NCBI RefSeq assembly: GCF_006345805.1
Contig: NC_043001.1
Coordinates: 69,068,001-69,132,000, forward strand
Reading direction: 5' to 3'
DNA from: Octopus sinensis
Taxonomy: Eukaryota
Length of the DNA: 64,000 nt
The notes under the pieces: model-generated
Database searches by the model: none
The model's input: only the letters and a program-made list of their open reading frames with translations
Told to the model about the DNA's origin: nothing
Shown here: one piece after another, positions 11,951 through 57,043 of the stretch
Numbering within the stretch: the stretch's first letter is position 1
Layout: each line of letters starts with the position of its first letter
Translations under genes and position numbers: made by a program

Positions 11951-13012
11951 AACAAATCCACCATTCGGTCTCTGGTGGATAAACAGAGGCGCAAATTATT
12001 CGAGCCAAGTAAAATGTGTGAGGTCTTTCAACAGCATTTTGCCCGTCTCTTCAGGATAAGTGGCGAGCGTGAACACAGGGTGGAATTCAGTACCTAACTG
12101 CACAGCCTGCCACAACTCTCGACAATAGAGGCAGAGTGCGGCGAAGGTGCCATCACGGCGGCGGAAGTGTGCTGCTTGGGGGACAAATCGTGTTTGGATG
12201 TTCTACACTACGAGCTTTACAGTTGTATGCCAGGCTTGTTTAGAGACGTCTTGGCAGCAGTGTACTGCAACTAGTAGCAACACGGGAGCTTCCCAGGTTT
12301 TGTGAGCCGAGAAAGATCCAAACAAAGGGGGCGAAATAGATAACTTTAGGCCCATCACTCTGCTGAATGCAGACTTGAGAATTTGGGCTAAGGTGTTAGA
12401 CAAGAAGTTGGCGTTTGTTATGGAGAAACTGGTTGACAAGGCGCAAACGTGCGCCGTGCCGGGCCGGAGCAACAATAAGAACTACATCATAGACAGGGTA
12501 GTTAAGGAACATGGCATAGGTGGGGCCCTGATCAATTTGGATCAATCCAAAGCTTTCGATAGGGTAGACCATCGATACTTTGAGGCTGTCTTCATAGCGG
12601 CTGGTTTCAGTCCCATCTTCCGCGGCTGGATAGCTGCCTTGTACAGAGGCATCCTTTCGGTAATTCGCATGAATGGGCATCTATCGAGACCTTTCGACAT
12701 TGCACGTTCGGTTCGTCAGGGATGCCAGCTCTCGTCGCTTCTGTATGTATTGAATCTCGAGGCACTACTGCGGAAGCTGGCGACGCTGAGGAGCATCCCG
12801 CGAAAATTGGGAAGCAGGAAGAGCGTATCCGTATTCGCGGACGATGTCACCGTCATAAATTCTAGCCAGGAGCACACTGAGCTGGTCGGCGAGACATTGA
12901 ATGACAACGAAGCGGTAACAGGAGCGAAAATCAACCGGGGAAAGTCAGTGCGCTTGCGGCTCGGCACCTGGAGAAGCAAGTCCATGCCGTCCAGCAGCGC
13001 CTCTGTCGTTGG
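11951..13012 (+). mobile_element. Tx1/L1-like LINE RT fragment (duplicate)
   Basis: ORF 12375-13028 contains LDQSKAFDRVDH, SVRQGC and VFADD. Confidence 0.9.
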
Positions 13013-13571
13013 AAGTGTATTCAGCTGAATAAAATTACTGCTGTTTTTTATCAAGAACTTCCGGCGGTTTATATTTCGTTTGTTATTTATGATAAGCCTA
13101 AACCTAAAACCCTAACCCTAACCCTAACCCTAACCATAAAAAACACTAATCCTAAAATTCTAACCCTACCACTAAAACTGTAACCCTAACCCTGAAACCC
13201 TAACCCTAACCCTAAAACCCTAACCTTAAAATCCTAACCTTTAAATCCTAACCCTAACACCGTAACCCTAAAACCCTAAAGTTAAAACCAGTACAAACGC
13301 ACGAACTATGTCATAAATAACAGGACAAACGAAAAATACCACGCCGATAGTTGTTGTTAACAAACAACGGCAGTAATTTTATTCAGCTGAATACACGTCA
13401 TTGATTGGTTGAAATTCCTGATAGGACAACTTTAACGTGAAATAACTCCATAAAGTTTGTCTCAAAAATGCTAAGAGTAAAAGATGTTTTATATAACACA
13501 TTGTACCAGTGTCCGGAGTTTGAAATTATCTTTTAAATCTGTCGGTAAAAAGGTAATGATCCCAAAGCATT
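13012..13571. mobile_element. Duplicate of the (CCCTAA)n-containing inverted-repeat element
   Basis: Arms at 13015-13041 and 13370-13396. Confidence 0.75.
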
Positions 13572-16920: not shown

Positions 16921-19389
16921 ATGTGCGTGTGGAAGAGGGCTGATGACCTTGACGTGAGCGCGCTTGCATGTGTAGCCATGTGGATGATGGTGTGGTGCTG
17001 GGAAGTGGTCAGTGCTAGTGTGAATGTGCTGGGGTGATTTGATATGGTGTTGTGGTATGGTGGTGTATGGTGTGTTGTGGTGTGTTTCGATGTCGGGAGG
17101 CGAGTGTGGGTAAAGCAAGGGTGGGGTGTGGGTTAGGCTGAGAATGGAGGAGATTTGGGATATGTGGGAATGGGTGTATAGGATGGAGTGGGATGGGATG
17201 GATAGGGAAGGTGGGGCTCGATTGTGTAGAGGTGGGGTTACGAGGGAGGAGTGACGATGAGGGAAAGGGGGAAGGGAGAAGGTGGGTCGGAGTGAAAAGA
17301 AGAGAGAAGGAGAGTAGGAGTGAAGAGAAGTAGTTAGAGTCGGAGCAAGAGATGAGAGGTGGGTGGGAGGAGGGTTAGATAAAGAGGGGCGGATAGTTGA
17401 GCCCATGTGGAGCAAAGGAGCGAAGAGAGAAGATTAATCCCTGTTCACAGCGAAGACGGGCGTCCGGATGGCCCTTGTGCAAGGACAATCCGGTGCTGCA
17501 AAAAGTGACAATAGCGGAAATGGCGCGAGACCGAGGTGTCATTGCCGAGTCGGATATATATATCAACATATATATAAATACGTTTGTGTGTTGGTGTGTG
17601 TGTATGTGTATTTGTATTTGTGCATTGTGTGTGAAATGCATTGCTGCTCACGTAGGATGTGGAAGTCGATAAAGCTATAAGTAATAGCTTTCATAATGTT
17701 CCGTGAAATATTTTTAAAAAATTAAGTTGAAATCTGCCGTCTTTCAGGGGGGCCTTTGATTTTTCCCCTTGTAAACAACATTCTAAATGCTTTCATTTCC
17801 AGTTAAAAAGAACTTATTTCATATTTCTGAAAGGTTCTAAGTCTTCACAACATAATCAATATATACATGCATTTATATACATGTGTACGTGTGTGTGTGT
17901 GTGTGTGTGTGAGAGTGTGTGCTTATGTGTGTGTGTGTACATTATAAAACTACTTTTCTCTAATGAATTTCTAACAGGAAATACCTTACATGTTTCCACT
18001 ATGCAAAACTCTGTAACTCCTGTTAGCAAATGAAACGTGTAACAGAGAATAGATAATAACAACAACATTCATTTCCTTGTTTTGTTATATTCAACAAACA
18101 ATATTGCGATAATTCTCAATTTTGATATGTATTTTGATGGACAGACATTAACTACGGATACAGGTTGACTGTAAAAATGGAATAAGCAAATATTCATCAA
18201 GAGGAAACAACTGGGATTTACCTTACTACCTATATAATACGTACATATACACCTGTGAGTGTATGACCAAATTACTTTTAATGACATTGTATTATGGCAT
18301 TCTCGTATTTTGCTGGGATATTTGACATGAAAATGTGTACTCAAGTAAAATTGGTTTAGATTTACTATATGTGATATATGTGATGTATCGGTTTTCCATT
18401 GTTATGAGAAGCAATGTAACCTTAGAATGTGTTAATTGGGGCACAGTACGAATTATCGTGGTATACATACATACACATATATATAAAGATAAGTTTTTAG
18501 TTTCCTTAAGTTTTATTGAGTAAGCAGATACCGGACGAGAATATGTAATTCTCGGATTTTGAATATCATTTATACAGTATGCAGTGTATATATTTTGCGG
18601 AGTTTCTTTATCTTTTACTTTAAAAAGAATTTTTAGATGGTATTCAAGCGATTACTATAAAAACATTTGCCCTGCTGCGAATCAGATATGTTGCTGTATA
18701 TGTAAATACTACTATCAACCGAGAGTAAACAATAATTTTTAAAGAACAAAGAAAGCATTTGTTTCTGTCTTGTATGTAAAATTATCAACTCTGTATTGCT
18801 GAATTTGTGATATGATCTTTTAACCCTTTGATATAAAGGTGAAGTGTCAGAAAATATATTTCGGTAGTTATCATCTTCAAAAAGCGTAAGGTATAAGTAA
18901 TCTCATGATATTTGAATAGATTAACTGATATATTATATCAGTTAATCAATGACCAATGCTAAAACTATAACCAAACTATGCAGAAGTATGGCAAAACAAG
19001 AAAAACTGTAACAAGAAACAAACTGATAATGTAATGGGGATAGATGGAAGCACATTTGACCTCGGTGGAATTCTTCCGACTCTGTTCTGCCATTCCACTG
19101 CTCTCTTTCATGGTTTGTAATAAAACACTTTCAACATACCAAAATCAAAAGAAAAAGAAATGAAAGAATTCAAATAAAACAACTCTTTGAACGTGCAACT
19201 AAATCCAATAAACAGAAAAAACTGAAACGGTTCTACAAATGCAAAACACCATGGCGCGAAATTCTGTTCACTGAGACCAATTAAAAGAATATATCAACGG
19301 GGTGAATGCTCCGATACTTTCAGTAGTAGACACCAACCCCAGGAGAGTGGAGCAGAATTAAGAGCAAACGACTTCTGCACTCTCTTTCA

Positions 19390-19448
19390 AAAATAATAAT
19401 GATGATGATGATGATGATAGTTATAATAATAATAATGATGATGATGAT

Positions 19449-19479
<31 letters not shown>

Positions 19480-19482
19480 ATG

Positions 19483-19537
<55 letters not shown>
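19390..19537. repeat. Compound (GAT)n(AGG)n(AAT)n microsatellite
   Basis: Seen directly. Confidence 0.95.
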
Positions 19538-19538
<1 letters not shown>

Positions 19539-21736
19539 TCCCAAATCAAATGAAACAACAAAACCAGAAAACTACAGACCAATAACCTGCCTCCCTACTA
19601 TGTTCAAGGCATTTACTGCAGTGATATCGCAAAGGCTGAACAAGCACCTGGACGAAAACAAACTGTTCCCAGAAGAGCAGAAAGGATGCCGCAAGGGCTC
19701 ATATGGCTGTAAAGATCAACTAATGATTAATAAAGCCGTAACTGAAGACAGCCACAGAAAGAAGAAAGGCCTCAGTATGGCCTGGATTGACTACAAAAAG
19801 GCGTTTGATAGCATCCCCCACACATGGATCCTAGAAACACTAGCCATTAACAAAGTAGCACCAACAATCATAAAATTCATAGAGCACTCTATGAATAAAT
19901 GGCAAACAGTCCTACACCTCCAAACAAAAGAGGGACTCATGAAAACCAAAGACATCCCCATTAGAAGAGGAATATTCCAGGGAGACACGCTCTCTCCACT
20001 CCTTTTCTGCTTGGCACTGTCACCTCTATCTGATATGCTAAATAGAACTGGATGCGGATATAAATGTTACGGCAAAACGATCAGCCACCTTTTATATATG
20101 GATGACCTAAAACTATACGCTGCAAATGACAAACAGCTGGAAACACTATTAAAGACAGTTCATGGATTTACCAAAGAAATAGATATGAAATTTGGATTAG
20201 AAAAATGCGCCAAAGTAACAAGAAAAAAGAGTAACAACATCACACTAGATAAAACCAATGAAATAAAAGAATTAGACCAAAGCCAAACTTACAAATACTT
20301 AGGAATCCATGAACTAGATAAGACACAACACACACAAATGAAAGAGAAATAAAAAAAGAATATTATAGACGAGTTAGATCAATACTAAAAACAGAGCTCA
20401 ATGCTAAAAACAAGATAATAGGTATCAACACTTTAGCTGTCCCAGTTATAAGTTACAGCTACAATATCCTTAACTGGACACGAAATGAACTGTCGAAAAT
20501 AGATAGGAAAACAAGAAAAATACTGACAGGATCTAGGATGCATCACCCAAAATCTGACATAGAAAGACTATATATACAACGTATAGAAGGTGGTAGAGGC
20601 CTTATACAGCTGGAAAACTACTATAAAATAACCACCATAGGACTGCAAAAATACCTACTTCAGAAGGAAGGAAAACTGATCCAGATAGCAGCAAAACACG
20701 AGCAAAACAAAAAACTGTTCTCAGTATTTAAGGAAGCTGACAAATACAAACAAGAAATCATACCACCTAATAAACACAAAAAGAAGAAGAAGAAGATGAT
20801 GAAGAAACAACAAAAGCTATAAAACAAATGAAATCCAAACTAAAAATAGAACAGCAACGAGCCATGATAAAACGATGGCAAGAAAAACCCCTTCATGGTA
20901 AATACTGCACTAAACTAAACGCAAAAGAAATAGACAAAGAAAAATCCCAGCAATGGTTGAGAAGCTCAGGACTCAAAGCAGAAACAGAGGGATTTTTAAT
21001 TGCAGCACAAGACCAAAGCCTCCCCACCAGAAATTACCAAAAACATGTAATGAAAAGAAATATTACAAGTAACTGCAGAATATGTGGAGATGGACAAGAA
21101 ACAATAAATCATATTATCTCTAGCTGCCCAGTCCTGGCTAAGAAGGAATATATTCACAGACATGACAGAGTTGGAACCTACATACATTGGAAGCTATGCC
21201 AACATTATGGAATAACAACAGAAAAAAGATGGTATAGGCACACACCAGAAAAGGTCACAGAAAACGAGAAAGCAACCATACTCTGGGATATGCCGATACA
21301 CACAGATAGAGAAATTAAGGCCAACAGACCAGATATAGTTGTCAGAGATCATGAAGAAAAAAATGCTTTCTAATTGATGTATCAATACCGGCAGATGACA
21401 ACGTGTCTCTAAAAGAAATGGAGAAACTCTCAAAATACAAAGACCTGGAAATAGAGATAACTAGAATGTGGAACCTGAAAACAGAAACAATTCCTATCAT
21501 AGTAGGTGCATTAGGCATGATAAAAAAATATTCAGACAAATACATAACAAAAACACCAGGACTTACAAACACATATAACATACAGAAAATTGCACTACTA
21601 GGCACTGCACACATCCTACGCAGAACACTTTCCATACAATAACCATCAGAGCATCACAACAAATCACAGCACATACCCAAGGCACACAGAGCTGTGCTCG
21701 GTAGTGAAGTGAAAGCACGCTATAAAAATAAAACTA

Positions 21737-35888: not shown

Positions 35889-37161
35889 CGAGGGACGTTC
35901 AATAAGTAATGCATCTGACCCACTTGTAGTTGGTTGATCTAGCTGACATTTTGCATGTGCAATTATTTATATCTCTATACAGCTCTGAACTAATTGTGGT
36001 TTCTGATTTACAGGTGTTTGAACTCAGTCAAGTGTGAAATGGAGCTTGTTCAGTGTCGAGCAGTGATTCGGTTTTTGTATTTGAAAGGACGCACACCACG
36101 GGAGACTTTTGATGAAATGAAAGTAACTTATGGTGATGATGCCCCATCATATGGCCTTGTAAAACGCTGGCATCGTGAATTCAAGCATGGTCGGAACTCT
36201 GTGGAAACAGCTCCCAGATCTGGTCACCCCCCTTCTGCCATTGATGAGGCATCTGTCCGTCAAGTTGAGGCTGCTATTTTGGAAGATCGACGCATAATTA
36301 TTCGCCAAATAGCCCATGAGGTCAAGATTAGTACCGGGTCCGTGGAAACTATCATTCATGACCATTTGCATATGCAAAAGGTGTCTGCCAGATGGATTCC
36401 CAGGTTGCTCACACCTTTCCAGAAGCAAGAACGCGTCGAGTGCTCGAGGATGAATTTGGAGATGTGCCAAGAAGATGAGTCAAAATTTTTCAAAAGACTG
36501 ATTACACAGGATGAAACCTGGGTCCATCACTAGGATCCAGAGACCAAAGCCAAGTCAATGCAGTGGAAGCACCGTGACTCACCTCCTCCAAAGAAGGCAA
36601 GGGTGCAGCCCTCCGCTGGCAAGATCGTGCTCACAGTCTTCTAGGATCAGGGCGGAGTAGTGATGACAGAGTTCCTGGCAAGGGGCACCACAATTACAGG
36701 AGCCTATTATGCTTCACTTTTGAGGAATTTAAGAGAAGCTACCAAAATCAAGTGGGGGGCAAGATCAGCAAAGGCATCCTCCTCTTGTTGGACAACGCTC
36801 CGGTCCACAACTCGCGTGTCGCCAGATCAGAAGCACAGACGTGCGGCTATGAACTCCTCCCCCATCCCCCTACTCTCCTGACCGTGCAATCTCTGATTTT
36901 CACCTCTTCCCAGCCACGAAGTTGTTTTTCAAAGGAAAGCGTTTCCCAAATGATGCAGCCTTGATTTCTGAAGTCACGTCGTGGTTGGAGGACCAAGCTG
37001 GGGTCTTCTACAAAAACGGTCTCCAGAGCTGCATCAAACGATGGGAAAATGCGTAACTCTGGGTGGTTCCTATGTAGAAAAAGACTAATAACTGTGCCAA
37101 GTTTCGTTGCTCTACTGCTATGGGAAGTGGGTTAGGGGCATTACTTATTGAACGCCCATCG
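35889..37161 (+). mobile_element. Mariner (DD34D) transposon, full length, defective transposase 36039-37088
   Basis: TA/cgagggacgttcaataagtaatgc...gcattacttattgaacgcccatcg/TA TIRs. Motifs RSGHP, WIPRLL, ITQDETW, LDNAPVH and YSPD-like. Stop at 36531 plus frameshifts. Confidence 0.97.
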
Positions 37162-37340: not shown

Positions 37341-37425
<85 letters not shown>

Positions 37426-37437
37426 TATATATATATA

Positions 37438-38029
37438 TGGTTTTAAATTGATATTAAAATTAATATTAATTTATCTCCCTCAATTTTTAAATATTTAAAT
37501 AAATACGTTCCCTAGTTGTAAGCACTACCCGCAGTGAATTATTCACTGCAGCCCTTCGCTTCAGGAGTCTCTCAGCGCGCCAGGCATTTGAAATTTTATT
37601 CCCGATGTAATCAGTAAGACTAAGCACGTGTCTGTCTTGACACAGAGAGCTGGGGTTAGTCTTGCGGTTTGCATCTCGAGGACCGAATGTACTGATGAAG
37701 TCACGGACACTGGAATTATGCAAGTAATTCTTTTGTTAAGACCGAAACCGAGGTATGCATTTAAGTCTGCTATTTATTTAATTTTTCATATGTCCTGCCC
37801 GCCAAAGTTGGTTCTGGTGTTCGCTGAATTCTTCCTCTAGAGAATTTCCCTTGTAGTTTGATCGTTGATGATCTTCTTCTAGCATTCTGGCCGGCTACCT
37901 AGCAGGCCAGCCCTGCCAATATACAAATATATTTGAATTTTCTCTGACTCCTCAGATTTTTTGAATGCTGGACTACTGGTTTTAAATTGATATTAAAATT
38001 AATATTAATTTATCCCCCTCAATTTTTAA

Positions 38030-38031
<2 letters not shown>
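37438..38031 (+). mobile_element. Penelope pLTR/retrozyme-like unit bounded by 55-bp direct repeats
   Basis: 37438-37492 matches 37977-38031 with 1 mismatch. (TA)n flanks. Contains a hammerhead motif. Confidence 0.75.
37685..37762 (+). ncRNA. Type I hammerhead ribozyme (predicted)
   Basis: Stem I AATGTA/TGCATT. Core CTGATGA at 37692-37698. Stem II GTC/GAC, extended by a GAATTAT-GCAA-GTAATTC hairpin. GAAA at 37744-37747. Stem III ACC-GA-GGT. Predicted cleavage after GUA at 37755. Confidence 0.75.
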
Positions 38032-38070
<39 letters not shown>

Positions 38071-51935: not shown

Positions 51936-53900
51936 TAAATTTACAGAAAACAAAGACGAAGGCAGGTGAGAGAACAACAAACAGGTGTATTAGTTTGACG
52001 CTCGGGAAGAATAGAAAAAGCATTTGACGCCACGAGCCTACGCTCTTCGACAGAAAGGATTATGAGCGCATGCCATAAACTTTTAATTCACGTCTGTTAT
52101 GTGTTCAGTACCAACTGTCATTTTGATAATCCTCTTTTTAAACACATTATACTGGTGCGTGTGAATATTACAAAATTATAATTAAATTAGAAGTAATTTT
52201 CAACTATATAGTTTATAAAATGCTTCTCTTAGAACCAGATTCTCCTCTCTAAGTTCATTGATTTGCAGATATCTCTGTGGGATCAATGAACTATGTTTTA
52301 TCGTTCTCGTTTTCTTTGCTTTAGTTTTAATTTTTGCTATGTTTATCTGTATATTGTTACACGAAATAACATCATTTATTCATTCATCATAGCCTGACAA
52401 TTCTAGCCCTTATAATTTTATCAGTCTAATGCGATATTAGTGTTTCCAAACAATCGGTTCAATATTATTAGTATTCAATATCCATCATATACACAGCTTG
52501 GCTATCTTTGAAGCAACTCCCTTTGCTTTCCATATTAAGGTATATAAACTCTATATCAGAGAATTTTATTATTTCTATGCGTTTGGAATAATTTTGGAAG
52601 TATACAACCAAACATTACTTTCTAGTTCATGAAATTTAATTATTTTGTGCTTGCTGTCACGCTGGGTATTTGGTATTCTTATAGCGTATTCTCCCACTTT
52701 TAAGCATGAAATATTCAAACATGGCAGATTATAATTTCTATGAGGCTTTGATATAGCAAACTATAATTTATTCTGATTTTTGAGGTTGAATTTGTTTCTG
52801 TATTCATGTGAAGCTAAATGTAGAACATAGTTCAGGCTTGCATATTATAAGATAATTTATATGATACAAAATATAAGCATGTAACAGCAAATCGTTTGAA
52901 GAGGAGAGTCACAATTCTTGTTTAAATCTATTGATCAGTGTTAACTTTGAATGACTAGACACAACCACGGTATCTCAAAGTTTCCTCACTTCAATGAATT
53001 GAGTGCTGTGAGTACATTGTCTGAAAGAAGTTCTGCATAGAAAAATATACAATATACAATAGCATGTTCACATTCAAAACTGCCGGTACATATTACCACT
53101 CTCAGATCTAGGCCCCTGTGTCTAACTTTAACCTCCATCTGAGCTCCTGGCGAAAACAATAACTAGTTGCATACATAGCTCAAAGTAATAATTGCAGGCA
53201 AACTAATGGAATCGGCTGCATCTTGGTGTCACTATATGATATTCACTTTATAATAAATAGTACAAGTAAAGTATAAATGAAGCATAGAACAGTTATGGTA
53301 GATGACTAAAGCTATTTCTGGAATACTAGAACTAGTAGATCTTGTTAATGCGTTACGCATTCATGTAACCCAACTATCCTGTCATTAACAAGATCGAAGT
53401 AAAAACTATATAGTTCTTTTTATGTTCTGATCAACTACAAGTTATGACGTAGGTTATTTTTATGAGACAGCAAATACTTTTCGCTAAATTAAAAGCGCTA
53501 ATTATTTCAATGAGTTTCGGATGGCATGGGATAAATGGTAGGCATTGCTTCGAGTTTGTGGGTTTATAGTAGACGTCAGTTTCACTTTGGTTTATTCACC
53601 TTTCTTTATTAAACCATCAAGCATTAAAAGTTTCTCTTTGCTATATTCCACTGAATTGCGTGATTGTATTTACGTCATTGATCAGTGTTTAAAATTCAAA
53701 TACTTTATAAATCAGTCATTCAGATTATATTTTCCAGTTATCACTAATATATTGGTAAAAAGATTATGCATATTTTTGTAGTGATTCTTGATATAAAGTC
53801 AATTCTAAATACACCATTACCAGGTTTGCCAGAACTGGGGATGCTTTTGTTCCCTTCGCAATTCCACATTTTTGTCAATAGTAACTAGTATCAAACATGA
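50980..53900 (-). mobile_element. Highly decayed RTE-like LINE relic(s)
   Basis: Only faint translated resemblance to RTE RT and C-terminal motifs (e.g. IITLSYVCN near 53170, KNTKEDI near 51125), with many stops. Boundaries are approximate and the relic may continue at 55226-55640. Confidence 0.3.
51930..52062 (-). mobile_element. Penelope-type hammerhead-like repeat, copy C
   Basis: Minus strand reads CTTT-CTGTCGA-A-GAGC gtag GCTC-GTGGCGTC, with GAAA mutated. Adjacent to (TA)n. Confidence 0.65.
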
Positions 53901-53933
53901 AGTAATTATTCGGGAGAAGAAAAAATTGTTTTA

Positions 53934-55223
53934 CGACGGACGTTCAATAAGTAATGCCTCTGACCCACTTGCAATTGGTTGATCTAGCTGAGATTTTGCA
54001 TGTGCAATTATTTCTATCTCTATAGATTAAGTAGCAAATTAAAGCTCTGAACTAATTGTGGTTTATGATTTACAGGTGTTTGAACTCAGTCAAGTGTGAA
54101 ATGGATTCTGTTGAGTGTCGAGCAGTGATCCGGTTTTTGTATTTGAAAGGACGCACACCACGGGAGACTTTCGATGAAATGAAAGTAACTTATGGTGATG
54201 ATGCTCCATCATATGACCTTGTAAAACGCTGGCATCGTGAATTCAAGCATGGTCGGAACTCTGTGGAAACAGCTCCCAGATCTGGTCGCCCCCCTTCTGC
54301 CATTGATGAGGCATCTGTCCGTCAATTGAGGCTGCGATTTTGGAAGATCGACGCATAACTATTCGCCAAATAGCCCATGAGGTCAAGATTAGTACCGGGT
54401 CCGTGGAAACTATCATTCATGACCATTTGCATATGCAAAAGGTGTCTGCCATATGGATTCCCAGGTTACTCACACCATTCCAGAAGCAAGAACGCGTCGA
54501 GTGCTAGAGGATGAATTTGGAGATGTGCCAAGAAGATGAGTCAAAATTTTTCAGAAGACTGATTACACAGGATGAAACCTGGGTCGATCACTATGGTCCA
54601 GGCACCAAAGCCCATTCAATGCAGTGGAAGCACCGTGACTCACCTCCTCCAAAGCAGGCAAGGGTGCAGCCCTCCGCTGGCAAGGTCGTGCTCACAGTCT
54701 TCTGGGACCAGGACGGAGTAGCGATGGCAGATTTCCTAGCAAAGGGTACCTCAATTACAGGAGCCTATTATGCTTCACTCTTGAGGGAATTAAGAGAAGC
54801 TATCAAAATCAAGAGGCGGGCAAGATCAGCAAAGGCATCCTCCTCTTGTTGGACAACGCTCCGGTCCACAACTCGCGTGTCGCCAGATCAGAAGCACAGA
54901 CGTGCGGCTATGAACTCCTCCCCCATCCCCCTACTCTCCTGACCGTGCACCCTCTGATTTTCACCTCTTCCCAGCCACGAAGTTGTTTTTGAAAGGAAAG
55001 CGTTTTGCAAATGATGCAGCCTTGATTTCTGAAGTCACATCGTGGTTGGAGGACCAAGCTGGAGTCTTCTACAAAAACGCTCTCCAGAGCTGCATCAAAC
55101 GATGGGAGAAATGCGTAACTCTGGGTGGTTCCTATGTAGAAAAAGACTAATAACTGTGCCAAGTTTCGTTGCTCTACTGCTATGTGAAGTGGGTCAGGGA
55201 CATTAATTATTGAACGCCCCTCG
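53934..55223 (+). mobile_element. Mariner (DD34D) transposon, second copy, defective transposase 54101-55150
   Basis: TA/cgacggacgttcaataagtaatgc...cattaattattgaacgcccctcg/TA. Colinear and highly similar to 35889-37161. Confidence 0.97.
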
Positions 55224-57043
55224 TAGTTATGAATTCCTTGTTGATGCACTCTGGATATTTTTCCAACGAAAATAAATTTGAGGATTTTTATTCCATTGTC
55301 GTGTGGGATATTAGTTTACAGCTTCACAATATCAAAGGCTTTCACAACTGCCTCTTCATTGATTGCTTTTGGGAGGTGGATTAGCATATCTAGATCGTAG
55401 GATGCCCAGAACATAGCTTACGTTTCACATGGTGGTCCAGTTGTAATAGATCTTAATTGTAAATCTCTTGGTTATTGAACATTGGTGTATATGTCTAGTG
55501 ATTCATTCTTGGCTTCATCAATCATCTGGCTTCTGTGGATTTTTGGAAAACACCATAGAAATGTCTAAGTTAATACATTTAAAATTTATTATATAGTCGA
55601 TTCTTTTGCCTGTTATATCTTTTCTGTGTAGGTGAAATGAGAAAGAAAGATTTTATACACTTACTAGGACAATTATATATCTATAAACTGCACTTTAAAA
55701 TTGACGGAAAATTTTTTAGATGAAAGAAAAGAATATATTTTGGAGTTTATAGGATACCAGGACAAATCAATGAAGCTATTTATGCTCAATTATTATGCAT
55801 TAAGAATCGGTAAATATCAATTTGCTGTAGGTCTTGATATTATACTTTTTTCCTATGAGTCTCAATTAGAAGTTTTCGATAGAACGATATAAATCTCATT
55901 TCATAATAGAATGAGATTTCGCCCAGAAATCACGGAGATTCTTGGATGGAATAATTTGTGCCACATTTTTGTAACATTACTATTAGGATGAAGAAACGAA
56001 TGTATAAATTGAATATTGTGCTAATTATTAAATTAACCATCAACCCTAAGGGCGTAAATGCTAATGAAGTTTTCACGTTTAAAACATTTGATATTCTTGC
56101 AGCTGGTATGATATGGAAAATATTAACCCTGAGAGCAACGTACAAATTCGTATTGAATTTGGGCCTCAAATTTGGCTTGAATGAAACCTCGCTTCATTCG
56201 ATGATGCTCGCGACTTGAATCATTATGTTCAGATCGGCGTTAAATGAGGTGACACCAGAAACAGCTTATACAGCGTAATTTCTTAATGTATTTAGTTTTA
56301 TGTCACTATGTTATGAGTCCACGTTACATGATTGTCATATAATTCCATTAATTGAGGAAAACAAAGAGAGGGCGAGGGAGGTGGAAAGGAGAAAGGGACA
56401 CAGAGAAAGAAAGAGTGAAAGGGAGAGAAAGAGAGAGTGAGTGAGCGGCGTAATTGTATTGAATACTCAACAGAATTAGCTTCATGTCAGATTTCTGTGT
56501 CAGAAATTAAGTCTCACTTACGGATGTTGCTAAACGTTCCACTATTTAGATTTACAGTTCCGATTAAAGAACAGAAACCACTAAGATGTCTAACTAATCT
56601 GTCTACCGAGATATTTGATATTGCCTTCCTCATTGATATAACTGACTGTGAAATCTCAACCACAAACTAACAAATAACACACAAGATTAATTCAATATGT
56701 TCCTGCTGATTAGAGGGGGGGATATATGAAAATGGAGTCATTTCTGAAATTGTATTGACTCATCTAACGTAATCTGTGTGTCATACTGATTGAAGAGAAT
56801 GTAGTGAGTGGCAATTAGTTCTTTATCTTATGCAATCCGAACAAGATGAGAAGCTTACAATGTGGACTACGTCATCGATTCAAATGAAAAATATTATATT
56901 AATGAAAATTGTATTAATCTATAACATTCTGCAGAAAACCAGATACAATAATTGTGGTATTTGATCATCACATAATGTAAGTTAAATAAAACGCTTCTTT
57001 TGATCTGAGTTCATGTGTTTCTATAATTCAATCAGTTTTTATC

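Follow-up and report, generated by a model that had tools for sequence, protein, structure and literature searches.

Retrozymes and Penelope-like elements are the described systems closest to the locus reported here. Plant LTR retrozymes have true, fixed LTRs, a type III hammerhead, PBS and PPT sites and 4-bp target duplications; for metazoan retrozymes circular RNA has been shown (PMC7229834; bioRxiv 10.64898/2026.07.22.740005). In both sources the mobilising enzyme is a hypothesis, and both treat its identity, and the role of the circle as the real template, as open questions. Retrozyme dimers have been assayed, with cleavage in one of nine (bioRxiv 10.64898/2026.07.22.740005). On AT-rich DNA, a Penelope-like protein in purified form cleaves the two strands and extends both of them, with internal initiation at two sites of the RNA; its main in vitro substrate is uncut RNA, and ribozyme mutants were still inserted (PMC11167929).

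Here we analyse an element of Octopus sinensis found in a 64,000-nt stretch of contig NC_043001.1 (the window, to which plain coordinates refer; Table 1). By sequence-level criteria it is a previously undescribed member of the metazoan non-LTR retrozymes: each unit has a type I core, the tandems are dispersed, no protein is encoded and there is no true LTR. Its insertions carry the footprint of Penelope-like elements, namely partial-tandem and inverted insertions, an optional tail at one end and microsatellite targets, and the retrozyme works like a non-autonomous Penelope-like element. It is not an autonomous one, as an ORF with reverse transcriptase (RT) and GIY-YIG is absent, nor a plant-type LTR retrozyme, given that the type I motif lies outside a repeat of variable length. 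The reading we favour, with a probability of roughly 0.6, is a 546-nt non-LTR retrozyme inserted by a Penelope-type RT/endonuclease from a circular monomer template.

Table 1 Features of the retrozyme locus in the window
Feature	Position	Strand	Support
Retrozyme insertion with a single arm of 1.09 laps; monomer ~546 nt in the family, 539 nt in this copy	37438..38031	+	
Partial lap, 5'-truncated (upstream "direct repeat"), beginning at a truncation point particular to this copy	37438..37492	+	
Final 55 nt up to site A, a fixed 3' end and the presumed start of reverse transcription; (TA)n follows	37977..38031	+	
Site B, the second fixed 3' end of the family; lies inside this copy, ~100 nt upstream of A	37920..37932	+	58/155 arms
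Type I hammerhead, predicted cut after 37755	37685..37762	+	sequence, conservation, compensatory changes
Long hairpin on the 5' side of the ribozyme, formed by 37614-23 and 37656-65	37614..37667	+	one compensatory change between subfamilies
Copy-error hotspot, two linked positions at the hairpin base; majority state in this copy	37664..37666	+	
GC-rich hairpin immediately upstream of site B	37888..37909	+	
(CA)n/(TA)n target microsatellite, left	37341..37437	.	sequence
(TA)n target microsatellite, right	38032..38067	.	sequence

The first-pass annotation had described a 539-bp unit bounded by 55-bp terminal direct repeats with one mismatch, flanked by TA repeats, with a second hairpin and without a substantial ORF. 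The repeats are indeed present (37438-37492 and 37977-38031, spacing 539, single mismatch at 37476/38015), as are the hairpin and the flanks, with a (CA)n/(TA)n tract on the upstream side and (TA)n on the downstream side. When the unit is read as a concatemer, the longest stop-to-stop frame has 82 aa and the longest ATG frame 40 aa, and the 546-nt circle has no endless ORF. The unit length has to be corrected: the family monomer is ~546 nt, and the window copy is shortened by a 7-nt deletion after 37581, these 7 nt being kept in 38 of 39 aligned monomers. The terminal redundancy exists but is not a fixed terminal structure, as it ranges from 15 to 2056 nt across copies. The window copy stops after 1.09 laps and ends at site A, so that the direct repeat is an overlap of tandem laps and no LTR. 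Since it holds one hammerhead, the window locus alone could not release a circle, and multi-lap sister loci would be the only possible source.

The window also contains two decayed copies of what we take to be a mariner-like transposase (35994-37160 and 54056-55315), the first of which stops ~180 bp before the retrozyme's microsatellite. A broken Penelope-like RT fragment on the minus strand (53452-53922 and 55274-55652) is split around the second mariner-like copy, and two further segments (19330-21373 and 12306-13028) are, from their translations, presumably fragmented LINE-type RT frames.

The hammerhead was the only motif that passed a scan of the window for the core together with a stem I of at least 5 pairs. 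Its core segments, CUGAUGA (37692-37698), GAAA (37744-37747) and GUA (37753-37755), lie where the first-pass annotation had placed a complete type I core, but the pair 10.1-11.1 (37699/37743), unnoticed earlier, is an A.C mismatch instead of G-C. This mismatch is found in the young subfamily, and the old subfamily has G-C in 21 of 33 units. Like the length of stem II, it is non-canonical and speaks against a typical hammerhead. The stems agree with the earlier description of a 6-7-bp stem I, a long stem II with a GCAA tetraloop and a stem III with a 2-nt loop: stem I (37685-37691/37756-37762) has 7 pairs, two of them G.U, stem II (37699-37743) spans 45 nt with its GCAA (GNRA) loop at 37720-37723, and stem III (37747-37754) is quasi-palindromic with a GA loop. 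Stem III is self-complementary with a central tandem G.A and is predicted to form a self-dimer (-6.6 kcal/mol) rather than a stable monomer hairpin, and palindromic stems III also occur in other hammerheads of the loci that we fetched. On these grounds, the ribozyme is predicted to act as pairs.

Folding energies speak for the unit rather than for the isolated motif. The unit folds better than its shuffled versions (z = -2.8 as a linear molecule), as does a sister monomer in circular form (z = -4.1, 60 shuffles); the isolated ribozyme motif does no better than shuffles (z = -0.91), and the active core is not formed in predicted minimum-energy folds. An Rfam search of the window, the check proposed by the first-pass annotation, gave no match at the gathering score and no hammerhead at E values up to 10. 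The long stem II is the likely reason for this miss, which we therefore do not count against the hammerhead.

Comparison of the two subfamilies agrees with the expectation that the stems would be conserved or covary among copies. Of 484 scored positions, 57 have a different majority letter in the two, against 0 of 18 in the core and stem III, a core conservation that is not significant by itself (p = 0.18). The paired changes in stem I and at the base of stem II are both compensatory, and the GNRA loop is retained; each compensatory change is one evolutionary event, and the whole pattern is suggestive but statistically not strong. The only common core polymorphism in the young subfamily (24 T, 15 A; n = 39) falls on position 7, a free position of the hammerhead. 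The old subfamily (L157-L186) has A/G polymorphisms in paired regions (21 G and 12 A at position 10.1), and the cleavage-site base is G in 4 of 38; these A/G polymorphisms could be RNA edits written back to DNA. A search for other hammerhead families that share stem III but have a shorter or longer stem II gave 2 matches where the control gave 3, plus 4 that all belonged to the family itself.

The element belongs to a large family. In the 2.72-Gb genome, a strict core pattern has 270 exact matches and a slightly wider one has 350, with none for the reversed-pattern control in either case; the family thus comprises at least 350 intact-core hammerheads. A DNA search with the unit, for which, as in each of our DNA searches, 40 candidates were scored (here of 1231), returned at least 118 matches, the near-full-length ones being 92-97% identical. 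The family is divided into two subfamilies, of which the older is ~85% identical and has the same layout. These numbers rule out a single-copy sequence and, together with the TA ends, bear out the earlier proposal of a young, multicopy, non-coding, TA-associated retroelement family. Near-identical sequence was found in sequencing runs of nine studies under four organism labels. Contigs assembled from four runs, the RNA origin of which is a guess, cover the unit and include some end-to-start joins. As strand, ends and circle versus tandem cannot be read from contigs, we do not use them as evidence of expression. Besides this family, the genome has three or more other families of non-coding repeats with hammerheads, which are its distant relatives (L217:264-1571, L222:1500-2130, L218:1000-2300, L219:1490-2110 and L221:1700-1940); the period of one is ~535 nt. 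They have colinear conserved blocks, a long stem II and a palindromic stem III, and their head-to-head arms stop at positions equivalent to sites A and B.

We examined the anatomy of 105 insertions, hand-picked with one locus each and biased towards full-length or ribozyme-bearing copies. They comprise 47 single-arm, 54 head-to-head and 4 complex insertions, the last being left out of the counts. Among 155 arms, the 3' end lies at site A in 87, at site B in 58 and elsewhere in 10. Site A corresponds to 38031 and its equivalent 37492, site B to ~37932, with a scatter of a few bases at either end. TA or CA repeats are reached by 106 of 108 outer ends of doubles and by 41 of 47 single-arm 3' ends. 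The 5' ends are spread around the monomer and arm lengths vary from 0.08 to 4.8 laps; 36 of the 155 arms cross the cut site twice or more (G000:C2:174459334-174461610 is an example of a multi-lap locus), and the single-arm copies longer than one lap (34/47) show the variable overlap described above. The idea of circular permutation with variable redundancy therefore holds for the redundancy and for the scattered 5' ends, but not for the 3' ends, which sit at two fixed sites.

The two ends of head-to-head insertions are strongly paired. After removal of the duplicate locus L116, 53 doubles remain, of which 43 are A+B, one is A+A, none is B+B and 9 have one other (minor) end, so that doubles with two A/B ends have one of each in 43 of 44 cases. 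In a permutation test of this pairing, 0 of 200,000 permutations reached the observed value (duplicate included, 44/45). The cut site leaves no mark on the insertions: neither fixed 3' site coincides with it, 5' ends lie there in 3 of 153 cases against 2.0 expected, and the two bases flanking it show no indel in 175 passes. This result makes cut linear RNA and end-to-end jumping unlikely templates. The largest 7-nt cluster of 5' ends (monomer positions 419-421) is borderline (p = 0.05). At one locus (L159:1474-2157 / L197), a retrozyme of the old subfamily with two arms lies directly against the 3' end of a young Penelope-like copy, both within the same short TA run; this arrangement is a shared target and no fused element.

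Units of the same insertion share their haplotype. With the hotspot and locus L010 included, lineage markers differ in 44 of 779 comparisons within arms (5.6%), 69 of 643 between arms (10.7%) and 45369 of 116912 between insertions (38.8%). Among 32 young doubles, the arms agree throughout in 27 and disagree at 1-3 sites in four. L010 (259-2058) is a clear mosaic of two haplotypes, between which each arm switches at a different point, possibly a template switch between two RNA molecules or an assembly chimera. Ten of 28 haplotypes recur in two or more insertions, and 19 private variants are common to all units of one insertion; another 151 are not, as expected for changes after insertion, and are uninformative. 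Recurring haplotypes and private variants in all units point to a monomer bottleneck. For a variant to be present in every lap, the template must have been a single monomer or its source must have been homogenised. This favours the circle, and we consider it probable from these sequence patterns that multi-lap insertions were copied from a circular template.

Two positions at the base of the upstream hairpin behave differently. Units of one insertion are discordant at 37664 in 13 of 28 and at 37666 in 16 of 28 insertions compared to 198 of 16905 elsewhere (L010 left out), that is, lap-to-lap differences are ~40-50 times the background. In 112 young units the three-base state is GCG in 71, TCA in 23, GCA in 12 and another in 6, and the two changes are linked (Fisher p = 4e-12). 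They are found on all main haplotypes and recur, with small indels, in the old subfamily. Several other explanations were considered. An assembly polishing error does not agree with the variant being present in contigs of 4/4 independent runs, nor with other common polymorphic sites being discordant in 1-3 of 26-49 insertions. CpG decay leaves the linked G-to-T change unexplained, and other CpG sites give 20/948. Templated switching from the opposite strand of the hairpin would account for the young subfamily but not for the old one, and A-to-I editing would need an A at 37664, which is found in 0 of 112 young units, though in two intermediate-subfamily copies. The best reading of the hotspot is a recurrent reverse-transcription error, which may stem from a modified base on some templates or from a pause at the hairpin. 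States are mildly clustered by insertion (p = 0.03) and the majority G at 37664 is absent in 3 of 29 multi-unit insertions; mixed source arrays may have contributed to the variation. That laps differ at the hotspot argues that they were copied separately and not duplicated as DNA. Genomic arrays may therefore preserve a record of single reverse-transcription passes.

As to the mobiliser, GIY-YIG domains are abundant in the genome (at least 147 matches, with 150 scored of 5029 candidates). We noted one young Penelope-like family, with copies 99-100% identical, as a candidate partner. Its 781-aa ORF has a GIY-YIG match above the Pfam cut-off, an RT match just under it and a CX4CXXC linker, of a kind known from Neptune/Nematis elements (PMC8557442). 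The candidate inserts into (TA)n at two end sites 35 nt apart, most ends being the short one and about eight of those listed the long one; at L213 a head-to-head pair has one end of each kind. In the copy L091:1674-6479 (G000:C1:207474173-207478978), an upstream 479-codon frame overlaps the RT/GIY-YIG frame, which lies at G000:C1:207475531-207477876, and there are CCAAT-, CRE- and TATA-like motifs. The terminal repeat of the candidate carries a non-canonical hammerhead-like motif. Neither blastn nor nhmmer found retrozyme homology in the terminal repeats of the fetched Penelope-like loci, this family included, for which reason it stays a candidate; the AT-rich endings common to it and the retrozyme are too low in complexity to count as homology. 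Because the footprints of the retrozyme and of the autonomous Penelope-like element match, a Penelope-type enzyme is the likely mobiliser, and mobilisation of this type is the part of our reading that we hold with high confidence.

The favoured reading would work as follows. Multi-lap loci would be transcribed, the ribozymes would cut the transcripts, likely as pairs via the self-complementary stem III, and the cut monomers would be ligated into circles. A borrowed Penelope-type enzyme would nick both strands of a (TA)n target, with priming on a single RNA at site A for one strand and at site B for the second, and reverse transcription would continue for a random number of laps. Joining of the two cDNAs 5' to 5' would give a head-to-head insertion; retention of the product from one strand only would give a single-arm copy, as in the window. 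A narrower version, in which an enzyme pair copies one circle from both nicked strands at two assigned starts and the hotspot reflects a site-specific chemical modification, carried by a fraction of the circles and misread anew in each lap, is a speculation that we consider doubtful.

The alternative to be weighed most carefully keeps the Penelope-type enzyme and replaces the circle with a linear multimer that comes from the transcription of tandem source arrays and stays uncut, so that insertion would not need the ribozyme. It equally predicts copies that span the cut site, no peak of 5' ends there and internal starts at A and B; uncut RNA is the dominant substrate of the Penelope-like protein (PMC11167929), the weak stem III and the A.C pair may make cutting slow, and the hotspot-discordant laps, with their clustering within insertions, could come from heterogeneous source arrays. 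Nonetheless this reading has difficulty with lineage and private variants that occur in all laps and on both arms, and with the compensatory changes in the ribozyme stems, and arrays of up to 4.8 laps would be hard to renew if each round truncates them. We therefore regard it as possible, yet unlikely.

A further reading takes the copies for ordinary pseudo-LTRs, solo or orphan, that derive from an autonomous Penelope-like element so far unfound. The same footprint is described for Penelope-like insertions (PMC8557442, PMC3846280), retrozymes are homologous to pseudo-LTRs (bioRxiv 10.64898/2026.07.22.740005), and the GIY-YIG candidates that might include the source number in the thousands. However, in tandem copies the unit leads into itself and no ORF follows. 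The first-pass annotation had named constant linkage to a GIY-YIG/RT ORF as the mark of a solo pseudo-LTR, and in the 105 sampled insertions we saw no Penelope ORF constantly linked to the unit; Penelope-like fragments in the 1.5-3 kb flanks of 10 sampled loci vary in orientation, distance and family. The terminal repeats of fetched Penelope-like loci gave no profile match, and we consider this origin very improbable. Growth of the arrays as DNA from single insertions, by unequal crossing-over or fold-back synthesis, would yield homogeneous units and has been proposed for retrozyme arrays (bioRxiv 10.64898/2026.07.22.740005), as has self-priming for inverted Penelope ends (PMC3846280); palindromic junctions in 5 of 53 doubles against 2 expected would go in this direction. 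Yet in 12 of 53 doubles neither arm is contained in the other, which rules out simple fold-back copying of one arm for those, and both outer ends are the fixed A and B sites in TA. Laps that agree at lineage markers and disagree at the hotspot would not result from faithful duplication, and for this family growth at the DNA level is largely refuted.

Compared to metazoan non-LTR retrozymes (PMC7229834; bioRxiv 10.64898/2026.07.22.740005), the octopus family, which is known from genomic sequence, has the same non-coding tandem units with one type I hammerhead each and low GC, the same dispersal as monomers to multimers and the same co-occurrence with Penelope-like elements, and its dimer-type stem III resembles the axolotl and newt motifs. 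The 546-nt unit is longer than the 170-400 nt of invertebrate examples and inside the 51-972 nt of bioRxiv 10.64898/2026.07.22.740005. The 45-nt stem II and the A.C at 10.1-11.1 set the octopus family apart, and its fixed twin 3' ends, head-to-head arms and (TA)n targeting are not described in the available portions of the two sources; in the open-access literature we found no published account of this insertion anatomy for retrozymes or cephalopods. With plant LTR retrozymes the family shares the non-autonomous, hammerhead-bearing nature and the circular-RNA model (PMC7229834; bioRxiv 10.64898/2026.07.22.740005), and differs from them in its variable repeat length and type I ribozyme.

The likeness to endonuclease-positive Penelope-like elements includes partial tandems with 5' truncation and an inverted 5'-truncated arm, and Penelope-like elements also share the optional tail at one end, a (TA)n bias, two internal start sites and a hammerhead with a palindromic stem III (PMC8557442, PMC3846280, PMC11167929). 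In contrast to them, the retrozyme has no ORF, its unit repeats itself rather than leading into one, and its two ends are ~100 nt apart compared to 30-40 nt. The quantified footprint points to a Penelope-type enzyme, and with a young candidate partner in the same genome an in vitro test is feasible. Finally, the rule of one A and one B end offers an explanation for two long-noted properties of Penelope elements, the tail at one end only and the head-to-head inversions.
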